Part shown: positions 44,626 through 49,104 of the stretch, piece by piece
Layout of the letters: every line of letters starts with the position of its first letter
How positions within the stretch are numbered: the stretch's first letter is position 1
Assembly: GCA_014879835.1 (NCBI GenBank)
Contig: JACSRJ010000153.1
Coordinates: 1 to 59,422, forward strand
Source of the DNA: Anaerolinea sp.
Lineage (GTDB): Bacteria; Chloroflexota; Anaerolineae; Aggregatilineales; UBA2796
DNA: 59,422 nt
Direction of reading: 5' to 3'
The notes under the pieces: model-generated
Databases searched by the model: none
Told to the model about the DNA's origin: nothing
The model's input: only the letters and a program-made list of their open reading frames with translations
Program-made: the position numbers and the translations under genes

Positions 44626-47600
44626 TCACTCAAGTTTGTCAAAAACCTTGTGCAGTTCCCGCGGGCGCACCTGTGAAAGCTGCGCGATCCGGTCGCTGGA
44701 TTCACGCAGGCGGCGGCTGAGGACATTGATCAGCTTCAGGGAGAGATCAGGGTATTGGCGAATCAGGGCCAGCAGGGGTTCGCGCCGCAGTTGTAGGGTC
44801 AGGGTATCCTGAATCGCAATCGCCTTCTCCGTGCGCGGGCTGTCGTCAAACATGGTCATTTCGCCGAAGTATGAGAGCGCCTCAACCGTGCCAATGCGGG
44901 CTGTGGAGCCTTTGCGTTGACCAGCGCGTTCCAGTGCTACCCGCCCCCGCACCACCACGTACATCACCCCGCCGGGATCACCTTCGTTAAAGATGACCGC
45001 ATCATTGGCAAACAGTTCTTCCTCACACACGCTGGCGAGGACTTTGAGTTGATCCACGGTCATGCCTTCAAAAAAGTGAACTTCCCGCAGGAAAATGATC
45101 TTTTCAATGGTGGATAACATGCTTCCATCCTCACTTTCAGTGACCCGAACTGCACCTGCCATCATACGGCGGGCTGCTTTGGCTGCAAGGCGTACCTCCG
45201 CGGCGCGGTCTTTGAGCGCAGGGCCGATCATGGCTTCAAGCTGCCCTTTGGTGAACAACGTCAGGCAGGGTGAATCTTTGGCAGGGGTGAAGGGCTGTAC
45301 CGCTGGTGCGGGTGATACCGCCAAAACGGGTTCTTTGTCCTCCGCTGGTTTTTCGAGGGATTTTTCGGCTGGTTTCTGGCTTGGTTTCTCACTTGGTTTC
45401 TCAGTGGACGGCTTGTCCAGCGCTCCCAAGAGATCACTGGGAGCACGGCGGGCCCGCCGTGTTTTGGGATCGGGCGGCGGTTCGGGTTTGGTGGCCTCGG
45501 TTGAGGCGGAGGACTGTAACGGGGTAGGTGACGTTTCTTCAGGTACATCTACCGCGGGTGGGTAAGCGGCCGCTCCGATCTCACCGAGGGCATAAGCGAC
45601 CACAGCACGGGCCCACGAGTCCTCGTTATCGCTGCCAAGGGTGCGCAGTACCGCCCCCGCATCCTGAGCCGTGACCCCTGAAAGCTCCTCACTGATTTCG
45701 AGGAACTGGGCCGGACTCGCTGCACGGTTAAATAGGGGCTGGAACATCCGCGCCAACTGGGGATTGAGAAAAGTTTCAAGGGCTTCTTGGGCATTGGCCC
45801 GCACCCGTTGAGAGTCACTGTTAAGCGACTCCGCGATTAAGCGCACTTCCGAAGGCGGATGAAGGGCGGAGAGTAGATAAAAAATCTCCTCCAGCAGGGA
45901 CTCGTTGCGTTCCCGCAGCACATCACGCAGCACCGCCACCCCTCGGAAGCCCACACAGGGGGTGAGGGCCTCTAAACGCACGATGTTGCCATAAATCTGT
46001 ACCAGATTGGCCCGCACATATCCCCGGATCAACTCCGCCGACTTCTCCTTGTCGATCTTGGTCAAAACCACCGTGAGCATCTTACGAAGCTGGGGATCGG
46101 TTGCCTCCGCACGGGAAAGGGCGATCAGGGTAGCCATATCGCCTGAACGCCCCAACGCCTGTACCGCCGTCTCACGGATTTCGGGGCTGGGATCGGTCAA
46201 AAAGCTGATTAAAGTGGGCTGGACACCGGGTGTATGCAGATTGCCCATGATGTTCAGGGCAGCCCGGCGGATACGCTCAACCGGATCATGCAGCAGGGTA
46301 CTGGTAAGCTGGGTGAGCAGTTCCTGTACACTTTTGCTTAACGGTTTGCCGGAGAGACTCTCAATGGCCGTGGCCGCCTCAAGGCGCACCTCGTCGTCGT
46401 TATCTCCCACATAAGGAATCAGAGACTGAATGAACCGAGGATCATTAAACTGGGCCATCAGCCGAACCGCCGAAGCCCGACGGGTTGGTGAGGGATCGGT
46501 CAGAAGCGGGGTGAGCGCCTGCATCGCCGCTGCCATATAGTAAATATCCCCAGTGCGGATTAGGATGGGGATCACTTGCAGGCGAATATCAGGCTCCGGG
46601 TCGCGCAGCAGCTCCAGCGCGAGGTTGTAGGTGTTCTCCTGTTCTGACCAGCGAGGAAGTCCGCTCACAGCCGCAAGACGCACCGCTCCGTCCGGGTCGG
46701 AGAGCATCTCGGTAAATAACCCTCGCACTTCAGCGCTCCGGTAGTCGCCTGCCACAAGGATGTTGGCAATCGCAGCGCGGGTTTGGGCGCTGCCCGCTCG
46801 GGCCATTTGCACCAGAATAGGCACCGCAGCCCGCCCGCCCACATCACTCATCAATTTAGCGATAAACACTGTTGTCTCTGGGCTGGTGCTTTCCTCTGCC
46901 TGCTTCTTGAGTCGTTCCAAGGTCTCGCCGCTGACCACCGTCAGATCTTCGGCGGGCTGAAGCACAAACGAATAGTCTTCCTGTTCCAGCATCCGCACCA
47001 GCGCCTTGGAATATTGACGACGCACAAAGATCGAGGCGATGAAATAGGCCATCCCCAGCAGCACCAAAAGCCCCGGCAGAAGCCATGGCGCATTGGGCAC
47101 CACCGGAATGAGCAAGAGCAGCCCACCACCCAACAGCGAACCAACGGGCACCAACAACCCGGTGGTAAAGGCCCGCGCCCGCCCTTTCACTTTGAGGGGT
47201 ACCGCATTGTAGAGCAGATTATCAATGGTCATGCGGAAGGAGGTTCGGAAGGTGGTGCGGTAGAAGTACGCCAGCCCCGCACTGAATAAGGCGGTAGGCA
47301 CTCCCGCCAGTGATCCCACCGTGATCAAGGTGCCCGTAGGGTAAATCATGTTGGTATTGCCCAAGCCCAACCACGCGATGATCCGTCCCATCAGGAACAA
47401 CTGCACCGGGAACATGATCAAGTTGGTGATCCCGGTCAGATTGCCTACATAGGAGGAGATCGCGGCGGTGGATTGGAGCTGAGTCTTAAGAATTTGGCTG
47501 GTCTGATAGGTGATCAGCGGCAGCAGAGTCATCAGAATCAGGGACGAAATGGCCATCCAACGCAGATAAGGCGAGTGGATCACGTAAGACCAGCCCTCGC

Positions 47601-48306
47601 GGATGTTTTCGGTGTAACCGCGCCAGCCTCGGTTCACGGGGCGTTTCGCTTCTGTCCGGGGTTTCGGGAAAGCCCCCGTCTGTCCCGAAGTGCTCAGTTC
47701 ACGTTCATCTTTGACCAAGCGAGGCATCAAGACTGCCCCCGCAGCCACCATAAGCAGAGAAGCCGCCCACAACAGCACGATGTTTTCAGGGGGCATCCAG
47801 CGGTTAAGTAAGGTCATGCTGAACCCAGCGATGATCCCCGCCACCCGCGCCCCGGTCGCAATAAAGGGCACAACACGTTTGGCCGCTTGGGTATCATAAA
47901 AACTGTTGACGTAAGTCCACCAATGAAGCACAAAGGTGTCTTTGATCACATGGGAGGCGAGGTACAAAAAGGGATAAGTGAGAATACCCACAGGGCTGCC
48001 TACCATCCCCCGACCTACCACCACCAGCACTGCGCTGATGAGCATGATCCCGATGAGCAGTTGAGCATGGGAAATGCGATCCACAAATAGGGTGTAGGCC
48101 GCAACCGCGATGATGGCGATGACCGCGTCCGCAATGAAGGTATAGGGCAGCACCCCTACCCCCACCAGTTCCAAAAAGGCAGCCTCGGCGATGGTCTCCC
48201 CCCACGTGATCCCGGTGAGAAAGATCAGCCCCATGATATAGAGCACCAGAAGGCGGGGCCACTCGCCCCGACGGATGTCAAAGAGATAACTGAAAAGTTG
48301 AAGCAT
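44626..48306 (-). CDS. 1226-aa fusion of a TLC/MFS-like nucleotide-transporter domain, HEAT repeats and a C-terminal cyclic-nucleotide-binding domain
   Basis: About 12 TM helices with TLC-like N-terminus. Multiple PBS-lyase HEAT repeats. KP-rich linker (EKPSEKPSQKPAEK). cNMP-binding FGEMTMF...RTA-like C-terminus. Confidence 0.7.
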   Translation of the reverse strand: MLQLFSYLFDIRRGEWPRLLVLYIMGLIFLTGITWGETIAEAAFLELVGVGVLPYTFIADAVIAIIAVAAYTLFVDRISHAQLLIGIMLISAVLVVVGRGMVGSPVGILTYPFLYLASHVIKDTFVLHWWTYVNSFYDTQAAKRVVPFIATGARVAGIIAGFSMTLLNRWMPPENIVLLWAASLLMVAAGAVLMPRLVKDERELSTSGQTGAFPKPRTEAKRPVNRGWRGYTENIREGWSYVIHSPYLRWMAISSLILMTLLPLITYQTSQILKTQLQSTAAISSYVGNLTGITNLIMFPVQLFLMGRIIAWLGLGNTNMIYPTGTLITVGSLAGVPTALFSAGLAYFYRTTFRTSFRMTIDNLLYNAVPLKVKGRARAFTTGLLVPVGSLLGGGLLLLIPVVPNAPWLLPGLLVLLGMAYFIASIFVRRQYSKALVRMLEQEDYSFVLQPAEDLTVVSGETLERLKKQAEESTSPETTVFIAKLMSDVGGRAAVPILVQMARAGSAQTRAAIANILVAGDYRSAEVRGLFTEMLSDPDGAVRLAAVSGLPRWSEQENTYNLALELLRDPEPDIRLQVIPILIRTGDIYYMAAAMQALTPLLTDPSPTRRASAVRLMAQFNDPRFIQSLIPYVGDNDDEVRLEAATAIESLSGKPLSKSVQELLTQLTSTLLHDPVERIRRAALNIMGNLHTPGVQPTLISFLTDPSPEIRETAVQALGRSGDMATLIALSRAEATDPQLRKMLTVVLTKIDKEKSAELIRGYVRANLVQIYGNIVRLEALTPCVGFRGVAVLRDVLRERNESLLEEIFYLLSALHPPSEVRLIAESLNSDSQRVRANAQEALETFLNPQLARMFQPLFNRAASPAQFLEISEELSGVTAQDAGAVLRTLGSDNEDSWARAVVAYALGEIGAAAYPPAVDVPEETSPTPLQSSASTEATKPEPPPDPKTRRARRAPSDLLGALDKPSTEKPSEKPSQKPAEKSLEKPAEDKEPVLAVSPAPAVQPFTPAKDSPCLTLFTKGQLEAMIGPALKDRAAEVRLAAKAARRMMAGAVRVTESEDGSMLSTIEKIIFLREVHFFEGMTVDQLKVLASVCEEELFANDAVIFNEGDPGGVMYVVVRGRVALERAGQRKGSTARIGTVEALSYFGEMTMFDDSPRTEKAIAIQDTLTLQLRREPLLALIRQYPDLSLKLINVLSRRLRESSDRIAQLSQVRPRELHKVFDKLE

Positions 48307-48342
48307 CGGGTCCCCTTTGGCAGTCCTTGTTTAAGCGCCTTA

Positions 48343-49104
48343 TCAGGTGCGAATCAGTTGGTTAGCGGCTTCTTTCAGGGTTTTGGTCACCGGATGTGAT
48401 GGCTCGCGCAGCACAAAAAGGCGCTTCTCGTCAGAGATGAACATCTCGTCAAGGTGGGGGATGACCCCAATGACCGGGCAGGCGAACTTCTCACTCATGA
48501 GAGGGATTACCTCCTGAGCACTGATCCCGGCGGGCATTTCATTCACCAAAAGGGTCACATTGGCGCCGTCAAGTTTGCGGGCCACCCCAACCAAGACACT
48601 TGTCCCCTGAAACTCTCGACTGTCATAACGCATCACAATTAGGGTCTTGTCCGCGATAGCGATCAGGGAGAGATTGTCCTCCAACAGCCCGGCGGGGTTG
48701 TCGATGATCAACACCTCAAGCTTGAGGGTTTCCGCCAGTGCCCGCATCCCTGCGTGCAGCAAATCAAGGTCGTAACCATGACGCAGCAGGTAAGCAATAT
48801 CACGCGGCTCTGGGCTGGCAGGGACGGCGAAGAACTCCCCTTCGCCCGTGATCCCTAAAAGGGCCGTGGCATCAAAGGCCGCGGTCAGAATGTCAATGCG
48901 CCCCGCCAGATAGTCGTTGAGACGGTAGGAGATATGACGCTCATCCAGCCCCAACAATATATGCAGCGATGGTGATTGAAGGTTCGCATCGACCACGGCC
49001 ACACGCATCCCCTGAAGCGCCATAAGCACGCCCAGATTGACGGCGGTGGAGGTCTTACCCGATCCACGACGGTATGAATGGATGGAGATGATCTTAGACA
49101 TCAT
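48343..49104 (-). CDS. ParA/MinD-family P-loop ATPase (deviant Walker A)
   Basis: SYRRGSGKTS deviant Walker A and Walker B-like VLIIDNPAG. Lies 36 nt upstream of the fusion gene. Confidence 0.7.
   Translation of the reverse strand: MMSKIISIHSYRRGSGKTSTAVNLGVLMALQGMRVAVVDANLQSPSLHILLGLDERHISYRLNDYLAGRIDILTAAFDATALLGITGEGEFFAVPASPEPRDIAYLLRHGYDLDLLHAGMRALAETLKLEVLIIDNPAGLLEDNLSLIAIADKTLIVMRYDSREFQGTSVLVGVARKLDGANVTLLVNEMPAGISAQEVIPLMSEKFACPVIGVIPHLDEMFISDEKRLFVLREPSHPVTKTLKEAANQLIRT

Follow-up and report, generated by a model that had tools for sequence, protein, structure and literature searches.

The stretch of DNA analysed here (the window, 59,422 nt) comes from Anaerolinea sp., and the unit under study is a pair of genes on its minus strand, at positions 44626-49104. 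The upstream gene of the pair (48343-49104) encodes a MinD/ParA-like ATPase of 253 amino acids (aa). [quoted passage not shown] The ATPase stop codon and the fusion ATG are separated by 36 nt, and this gap contains GGGGA, a ribosome-binding-like site. The two genes probably form a two-gene unit, an operon of an Anaerolinea-type Chloroflexota genome, in which the fusion gene is probably co-transcribed with the upstream ATPase gene. A gene for a protein resembling the major vault protein (MVP) lies divergently on the plus strand (49300-51096). The open reading frames (ORFs), the domain parts, a DNA repeat within the fusion gene and the divergent MVP-like gene had all been recognised in an initial annotation of the sequence, and each was recovered in its place.

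The fusion was compared with Pfam and with its homologues (44626-48306, minus strand). TLC, HEAT_2 and cNMP_binding models all scored above their cut-offs, which upheld the initial description of a TLC transporter, HEAT, linker and cyclic nucleotide monophosphate (cNMP)-binding fusion. The N-terminal domain (aa 1-445; 46972-48306, minus strand) was assigned as an NTT/TLC-type, 12-helix transporter of the major facilitator superfamily (MFS) using Pfam, an AlphaFold2 (AF2) model, Foldseek and a family profile. The TLC match scored 24.9 bits (cut-off 21) and covered aa 125-329, equivalent to profile positions 163-364 of 491; the NCBIfam NTP/NDP exchanger model gave 28.1 on the fusion, below its cut-off of 387.2. 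The N-terminal profile was built from 450 aa of 29 family members and searched against the PDB, where NTT structures were the sole matches (9j3n, E = 2e-10; 9j3j, E = 1e-7). The AF2 model was made for aa 1-900 using 87 sequences (pLDDT 89.2). In it, 12 long helices span aa 13-442, with a basic loop (aa 198-227) dividing them 6 + 6, and about 20 HEAT helices come after; a hydropathy scan agreed with this architecture. Foldseek searches of the model against the PDB returned 9j3l, 9j3m and 9j3n as best matches (AtNTT1 and Chlamydia pneumoniae NTT1, TMt 0.63-0.72); the next matches (alphaRep, PP2A-A and importin-alpha) all fell on the HEAT solenoid. The TLC match was therefore corroborated by the NTT-only profile matches, the 12-helix AF2 model and the Foldseek ranking.

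An MFS motif-A-like element (FVDRISHAQLL) occupies aa 74-84 of the fusion, and two segments in predicted cytoplasmic loops, YD..AKR (aa 137-144) and NAVPL.VKGRARA (aa 367-379), were invariant. Across 39-87 homologues, invariant positions clustered in such predicted loops (F-x-D76-R77, Y137-D138...A142-K143-R144, R308...G314 and N367-A-V-P...K374-G-R376), and the charged or polar loop residues D76, R77, D138, K143, R144, N367, K374 and R376 did not vary. The AKR of the family stands opposite the EAKR/EAKK of solved NTTs in the profile alignment. From this pattern of conservation, we infer that the domain would be a working carrier and not a mere anchor. Both termini of the NTT domain were predicted to be cytoplasmic, and an inside N terminus would also place the C-terminal 780 residues in the cytoplasm. 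Compared with AtNTT1 and C. pneumoniae NTT1 (9j3j-9j3o), the 12-helix fold is shared (TMt 0.72 and 0.63, approximately 490-505 aligned columns), as are the profile match (E = 2e-10) and the AKR motif with characterized NTT/TLC translocators. The fusion differs from these translocators in its low identity (14-16%), a Pfam score barely past threshold, a free-living host and approximately 780 additional cytoplasmic residues.

The HEAT-repeat solenoid (aa 460-915, about 20 helices; 45562-46929, minus strand) was supported by Pfam, AF2 and Foldseek, and Pfam HEAT_2, HEAT and HEAT_EZ matched four stretches at 124.5 bits. A 101-aa linker rich in P, A, S, E and K follows (aa 916-1016; 45259-45561, minus strand) and is predicted to be disordered; its length was hypervariable among homologues. 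The tandem DNA repeat that had been said to encode a KP-rich linker is real and small: Tandem Repeats Finder located a 12-nt repeat of 2.8 copies (score 54) at 45370-45403, and it encodes (E/Q)KPx units in part of the linker. The linker was otherwise unalignable except for one short linear motif, RRARRAPSDLLGAL (aa 950-963; 45418-45459, minus strand), which is conserved in homologues as RRxRRxxxDLLGAL in 1-3 copies per protein. Of 41 linkers, 33 matched a loose pattern of this motif, where shuffling of the linkers gave an expectation of 0.12. After the linker comes a conserved HEAT-like repeat with the consensus D-P-x3-V-R-x-A-A (aa 1017-1053; 45148-45258, minus strand).

The cNBD (aa 1062-1200; 44707-45123, minus strand) was identified by Pfam, profile matches and its cassette residues. 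Pfam cNMP_binding scored 55.6 bits (cut-off 27.5) over aa 1099-1185. The phosphate-binding cassette is FGEMTMFDDSPRTEKAIA (aa 1147-1164); in 39 sequences, G1148 and E1149 were invariant, position 1158 was Arg in 29 and position 1159 was Ser or Thr in 36. The window copy retains all four, and its cNMP-binding cassette, judged by these residues, is intact. The domain resembles CRP/PKA-type cNBDs in its matches to CRP-family and PKA/PKG profiles (E = 1e-21 to 1e-14) and in the FGE...PR[ST]A cassette. It differs from those in being joined to a transporter-HEAT module, where they have one for DNA binding or kinase activity, and in the family-specific tail, RPRELHKLFDKL[DE], that comes after it. This conserved C-terminal tail (aa 1201-1226; 44629-44706, minus strand) ends in VRPRELHKVFDKLE (aa 1213-1226) in the window protein, and was common to stand-alone cNBD proteins found in 13 of the related loci described below.

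The MinD/ParA-type ATPase (48343-49104, minus strand) was characterized by Pfam, an AF2 model and a family alignment. Pfam CbiA, ParA and AAA_31 matched above cut-offs, and the AF2 model (pLDDT 92.4) was placed by Foldseek nearest to archaeal MinD (1hyq, 1g3q), with TM scores of 0.75-0.86 to archaeal MinD, MinD, FleN and Soj. The Foldseek order was archaeal MinD, FleN, bacterial MinD, FlhG, Soj and McdA, with BcsQ further down, and the best PDB relative by sequence was Aquifex MinD (E = 2e-12). The ParA/MinD identity given to this protein at the outset thus agrees with both Pfam and fold. It is not a canonical MinD/Mrp, scoring far below the NCBIfam MinD cut-offs (TIGR01968, 61.5 vs. 212.9; TIGR01969, 72 vs. 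201.75). The 'deviant Walker A' of the initial annotation was not borne out, as the signature lysine is missing: the window protein reads HSYRRGSGKTS (nt 49048-49080) where Escherichia coli MinD reads SGKGGVGKT. No second MinD/ParA gene was found in the window.

For comparison, 53 members of the ATPase family from related loci were aligned. They represent a Chloroflexota subfamily whose Walker A is HSFRGGTGKS; 50 of the 53 show Arg where the signature Lys would stand, the switch motif is DTD and the Walker B is IDTHPG. The window ATPase is divergent within the family, with no more than 48% identity to any other member. Its Walker B is LIIDNPAG, and its VVDANL (nt 48979-48996) puts Asn at the position of MinD D40, corresponding to DTD in the family and DFD in MinD. 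Neither it nor the family has a C-terminal amphipathic membrane helix, and the protein stops where the MinD core stops. Against MinD, archaeal MinD, FleN/FlhG, Soj, McdA and BcsQ, the ATPase therefore keeps the fold, the P-loop GK[ST], the switch Asp region and Walker B, and departs from these MinD/ParA (SIMIBI) ATPases in the Arg for signature Lys, the Asn at D40 and the absent membrane-targeting helix. Arg at the signature-Lys position occurs in BcsQ too; the Pfam BcsQ model scored the window ATPase below its cut-off. D40A mutants of MinD and Soj serve as the analogy for reading Asn at the catalytic Asp. Because of the Arg and the Asn together, the analogy suggests that the window ATPase may act as a slow or non-hydrolysing, low-turnover ATP switch and not as a fast-cycling positioning motor. 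The RRG variant of Walker A (vs. RGG) and Asn at the catalytic Asp (DxN vs. DTD) occurred together in five of six sequences (e.g. L033:19899-20660 and L059:19912-20661; numbers with L denote loci), which suggests, from these residues, a putative non-hydrolysing paralogue class. Some other members carry GTGRS, in which the P-loop Lys is replaced by Arg. The motif RGGTGKS was in no paper of our literature search.

Homologues of the fusion were searched in 5.8 billion proteins. More than 200 were found, and most of the 120 that were listed are full-length (40-61% identity); 79 of these 120 best homologues align over the full length, with the same domains in nearly all. Among those listed, homologues with a source name came from Chloroflexota metagenome-assembled genomes. 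At E ≤ 1e-30, a profile search of 1.84 billion cluster representatives gave 5504 proteins; lengths of approximately 1100-1250 aa predominated among the top 150. One full-length family cluster came from Nitrospinaceae, outside Chloroflexota. Fusions of the NTT-HEAT and NTT-HEAT-cNBD types are already known: they were reported to form a monophyletic clade with a wide distribution among bacteria (Major, Embley and Williams, 2017, Genome Biol Evol 9:480; PMC5381601), and the Nitrospinaceae relatives fit such a broad clade. The same authors reported repeated fusion and fission at the HEAT/cNBD junction and suggested control of transport by cAMP. The window protein is like their fusions in carrying NTT (PF03219), HEAT (PF13646/PF02985) and cNBD (PF00027) in the same order on one polypeptide, and is assigned, by these domains and their order, as a Chloroflexota member of the NTT-HEAT-cNBD family. 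The labile HEAT/cNBD junction is a further likeness, seen here in a separate cNBD gene in a 70%-identical relative and in stand-alone cNBD paralogues. In that relative (L081:10001-13760) the fusion is split inside the linker into two genes, whose products are 939 aa (NTT-HEAT) and 289 aa (cNBD) long; an assembly frameshift is possible. The 2017 set differs from the present one in holding only two Chloroflexi sequences, with gene neighbourhoods limited to the downstream cNBD. It does not include the ParA-like partner, the cyclase-STAND, HAMP-GAF, solute-binding (SBP) or nonribosomal peptide synthetase (NRPS)-like neighbours, the linker motif or the C-terminal tail. To the extent that the literature could be searched, new details of the present analysis are the conserved ATPase partner, the motif in the linker, the C-terminal tail and the signalling/NRPS-like neighbourhood.

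To place the pair in its genomic context, one genome per species was used. A scan of contigs with the single fusion protein gave no relatives; the relatives came from an alignment-based scan, in which 125 stretches with a relative were confirmed by tblastn and 80 loci were retained. Record titles of these loci named Anaerolineales, Caldilineaceae, Ardenticatenaceae, Thermoflexales, Aggregatilineales, Chloroflexaceae, Roseiflexaceae and one 7.3-Mb Candidatus (Ca.) Vecturithrix contig. The window proteins were then compared with the 80 fusion-centred loci (flanks to 10 kb) by tblastn. A ParA-like gene was present within 10 kb of the fusion in 45 of 80 loci, and in 24 of 80 it directly preceded the fusion on the same strand, at a distance of 21-284 nt. 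Where at least 9 kb was available on both sides, the count was 25 of 37. This frequency is far above chance by our estimate, which is not a computed expectation and considers that a 4-7 Mb genome holds few copies. In five loci the ParA-like gene was directly downstream of the fusion, so proximity was kept though the order changed. In the 70%-identical relative, the closest with long flanks, the ATPase-fusion pair was the only retained part of the window neighbourhood. Contigs with the pair bore labels of Anaerolineae and Chloroflexia lineages, and the pair was also present in the contig labelled Ca. Vecturithrix, which we take to be outside Chloroflexota. A link between ParA-like ATPase and fusion is thus supported at the level of synteny, and of the conserved ParA-fusion-MVP neighbourhood that had been proposed initially, the ParA-fusion part stood (45 of 80 loci) and the MVP part did not (0 of 80).

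ORFs of the 80 fusion loci were called and clustered into families, and genes for cyclases and sensors were enriched beside the fusion. A class III cyclase lay within 10 kb in 24 of 81 loci; 19 of these belonged to one cyclase-STAND family (F4), always upstream and on the same strand. These cyclase-STAND proteins (e.g. L002:4001-7657) are approximately 1200 aa long, with two Guanylate_cyc domains, an AAA_16 STAND NTPase and a long C-terminal region. A 133-aa winged helix-turn-helix (wHTH) protein (L008:1831-2232) was often encoded between the cyclase-STAND and ATPase genes. The stand-alone cNBD proteins formed one family (F7) in 13 loci. Four gene orders recurred: cyclase-STAND, wHTH, ParA-like, fusion and two NRPS-like genes; stand-alone cNBD, cyclase-STAND, fusion and two NRPS-like genes; ParA-like, fusion, a 274-aa protein of unknown type, SBP_bac_5, CHASE3-HAMP-GAF and ParA-like; and fusion, GNAT, methyltransferase, SBP_bac_5, CHASE3-HAMP-GAF, 1-3 ParA-like genes and LacI. 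In 29 loci the fusion was followed directly by the NRPS-like gene, usually as a tandem pair, and the NRPS-like product (L077:13756-17445, 1229 aa) contains Formyl_trans_N/C, a partial Condensation domain, AMP-binding and PP-binding domains. In the contig labelled Ca. Vecturithrix (L023, 7.29 Mb), genes for a SpoIIE-type phosphatase, a wHTH protein, two ParA-like proteins, the fusion and two NRPS-like proteins lie together at approximately 7500-23650, a cluster that suggests horizontal transfer as a unit between filamentous bacteria.

A further explanation, with which the frequent cyclases agree, would make the fusion an anti-phage effector of the Pycsar/CBASS type that is activated by cyclic nucleotide, a cNBD being coupled to a membrane-disrupting domain with a cyclase encoded nearby. 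PADLOC did match the C-terminal domain to Pycsar/TIR effector models (E = 2e-7 to 7e-6) and the HEAT region to a HEAT-ARM model. The matches were confined to the generic cNBD (aa 1089-1210) and HEAT parts, whereas the membrane part is a full 12-helix NTT-type carrier and not a short pore-forming transmembrane module. The family is also spread over many Chloroflexota lineages with housekeeping, signalling or metabolic neighbours and not in defence islands, and the cyclase encoded nearby is of the tandem class III cyclase-STAND type. This explanation was dropped because the PADLOC matches were domain-level only, and we consider it extremely unlikely.

The MVP-like gene was analyzed from both sides of the proposed link. 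Its product has Pfam Vault repeats and MVP_shoulder, besides which a C-terminal coiled coil was observed, and the true start is probably the ATG at 49354, which gives 580 aa and matches the public annotation. The MVP-like and ATPase genes have a common divergent intergenic region of approximately 200-250 nt. Upstream of the ATPase gene, a promoter-like -35/-10 pair was located at 49149-49177 (minus strand), as a consensus match only in a region no richer in such sites than shuffled sequence; in promoter and terminator scans of the region as a whole, sites were likewise no more frequent than in shuffled sequence. ParA-type ATPases position large cargo in other systems, and with the shared intergenic region this would suit a module in which the ATPase, the HEAT fusion and the MVP-like protein together position or load, for example, a vault-like particle. 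Synteny speaks otherwise from either direction. When the MVP-like protein was compared with the 80 fusion loci by tblastn, no match was obtained within 10 kb at E ≤ 1e-5 and none was credible at E ≤ 10, and no MVP gene was near the fusion in the two closest relatives. No ParA-like or fusion genes stood beside the MVP homologues of three other genomes (long contigs), whose contexts differed in each and were unrelated. The short bacterial MVP family is moreover rare (37 matches in the 5.8 billion proteins, mostly 545-580 aa, one of them from Ca. Uhrbacteria), whereas the fusion family is large. A preprint on bacterial MVP homologues did not address gene context. The functional link between vault-like protein, ATPase and HEAT scaffold that had been put forward initially therefore fails, such a module is very improbable, and the MVP-like gene is an unrelated neighbour whose adjacency is coincidental.

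Other genes around the unit look like housekeeping genes: those at 40075-44447 and 55898-56758 of the window include an FHA/zinc-ribbon protein, PolX with a PHP domain, MurB and a microbial-type PARG. A 270-aa ORF at 42703-43515 had no Pfam match. On the plus strand, 53739-55376 encodes a protein with response-regulator (REC), GAF and class III cyclase domains, 4.6 kb from the ATPase gene, which does not belong to the cyclase-STAND family.

Taken together, we consider it moderately probable that the fusion is a cNMP-regulated NTT-type transporter or signalling platform with the ParA-like ATPase as its regulatory or positioning partner. The initial proposal of 'cNMP-regulated transport or scaffolding' fits the domains, the intact cassette and the recurrent cyclases, and is plausible to that extent. 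The proposed parts would be an inner-membrane 12-helix transporter, a cytoplasmic HEAT array, a linker with its motif, a HEAT-like repeat and a cAMP/cGMP-type binding domain. Cyclic nucleotide from class III cyclases, often encoded nearby, would bind the C-terminal domain; in the window, the REC-GAF-cyclase could be the source. The HEAT module would then relay this binding, such that transport by the NTT-type domain is altered or the partners of the HEAT platform are changed. The upstream ATPase, as an ATP-bound dimer, may dock on the cytoplasmic part of the fusion and regulate or position it, with the linker motif and the conserved C-terminal tail as candidate docking sites. Genes for FlhG and BcsQ likewise adjoin those of the membrane machine they serve.

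Several results weigh against this interpretation. For the carrier, the TLC match is, by its score and coverage, weak and partial, and phmmer with the single N-terminal sequence gave no match in the PDB, the NTT structures being reached by the family profile only. None of the NTT-HEAT clade had been functionally characterized in 2017 (PMC5381601), and no later functional work on NTT-HEAT proteins was found in our literature search; because of this, both 'transporter' and 'nucleotide' are extrapolations. For the window, none of the cyclase-STAND, wHTH, NRPS-like, SBP or HAMP-GAF families was present, and generic cyclase, receiver and methyltransferase similarities were all that appeared (the cyclase at 54.8-55.4 kb); between this cyclase gene and the unit lie the MVP gene and genes for YggS-like (51869-52732) and YfiH-like (52639-53487) proteins. 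For the docking site, the copy number of the linker motif did not correlate with the count of nearby ParA-like genes (Spearman rho = 0.08), so a role of the motif in ParA binding is unsupported.

For the ATPase partnership, approximately one third of fully flanked fusion loci were without a ParA-like gene, and three distant members of the fusion family (one from Nitrospinaceae) had no ParA-like neighbour. When metagenome contigs were scanned with the ATPase alignment, the fusion was found in only 6 of 43 ParA-centred loci with at least 1.5 kb downstream. Other neighbours of the ATPase family were OmpR-type response regulators, a HATPase_c_2-REC-SpoIIE phosphatase, PrsW and dCache- or CHASE3-HAMP-GAF proteins, and further ones were the 133-aa wHTH protein, stand-alone cNBD proteins and stand-alone NTT-like proteins of approximately 450 aa. 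Up to three ATPase paralogues were in tandem in some loci. The association is therefore asymmetric and lineage-specific, and with several paralogues, all in signalling-rich contexts, the fusion is one of the partners of the ATPase family. These multiple paralogues, the many other contexts and the loci and distant lineages without an ATPase would also be expected if the adjacency were inherited synteny free of functional coupling, with the ATPase serving another signalling pathway. Against such an explanation, the pair persists amid changing surroundings in several Chloroflexota lineages and in the Ca. Vecturithrix contig, the gaps are short (21-284 nt) and on the same strand, and the ATPase gene is directly downstream in five loci. 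We therefore judge uncoupled synteny to be improbable.

Side observations were made at the loci of distant and stand-alone relatives. Distant family members adjoin genes of the peptide-related or sensor type: in L167 (Nitrospinaceae), the distant fusion is beside an ATP-grasp protein, SBP_bac_5 and Opp permeases, and in L169, genes for an SBP, a methyltransferase and a dCache-HAMP protein are directly upstream and end 19 nt before the distant fusion. In three metagenome loci (L089, L098 and L121), ParA-like genes adjoin or lie close to those for stand-alone NTT-like proteins of approximately 450 aa from the same clade, downstream of which neither HEAT nor cNBD was detected; this hints at a partnership of the ATPase with the carrier domain itself.

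The main rival to the regulated-carrier interpretation is that the NTT-like domain does not transport and would instead be the membrane anchor, or 'transceptor', of a cAMP-responsive scaffold, whose HEAT array recruits the ATPase, HAMP-GAF sensors and others. HEAT solenoids are protein-binding platforms, and the structural matches of this one included PP2A-A and importin-alpha. The neighbours are mainly signalling genes, and several sensors are without a Pfam-detected output domain (CHASE3-HAMP-GAF, and dCache-HAMP in L169). The weak, partial TLC match points the same way, and free-living organisms with members of the family were noted to have no obvious external nucleotide source (PMC5381601). 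Set against these points, the 12 helices, the motif-A-like element and the invariant charged loop residues including AKR are kept as in an alternating-access carrier, and the stand-alone NTT-like proteins beside ParA-like genes exist without the scaffold. An anchor or transceptor is a considerable possibility, if on balance an unlikely one.

A more specific version of the regulated-carrier interpretation is offered tentatively, and taken as a whole it is doubtful. The Arg-type ATPase may serve as an ATP switch dedicated to an NTT-type carrier that is gated by cAMP, docking on the linker motif or the C-terminal tail; this would apply to filamentous Chloroflexota and, through transfer, to Ca. 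Vecturithrix. The pair would belong to an undescribed signalling-transport module, along with cyclase-STAND and wHTH proteins, HAMP-GAF sensors that have no output domain, a solute-binding protein and NRPS-like enzymes. Such a module might export or import either a nucleotide, perhaps the cyclic one, or a small peptide-like signal that passes between cells.

For the window itself, the outcome is mostly clarification: the architecture of the fusion is a known one, the ATPase link is real in synteny and the MVP link is coincidental. Beyond the window, NTT-HEAT(-cNBD) proteins occur widely, from free-living bacteria, cyanobacteria and chlamydiae to oomycetes. Their conserved neighbours in the present loci (the ATPase, the cyclase-STAND protein, stand-alone cNMP-binding paralogues and HAMP-GAF sensors) are testable handles on NTT-HEAT function. 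These neighbours point to cyclic-nucleotide-controlled transport or signalling, and away from the 'energy parasitism' of plastids and parasites and from vault-like particles. The question of what NTT-HEAT proteins do is made somewhat more tractable by these new details.

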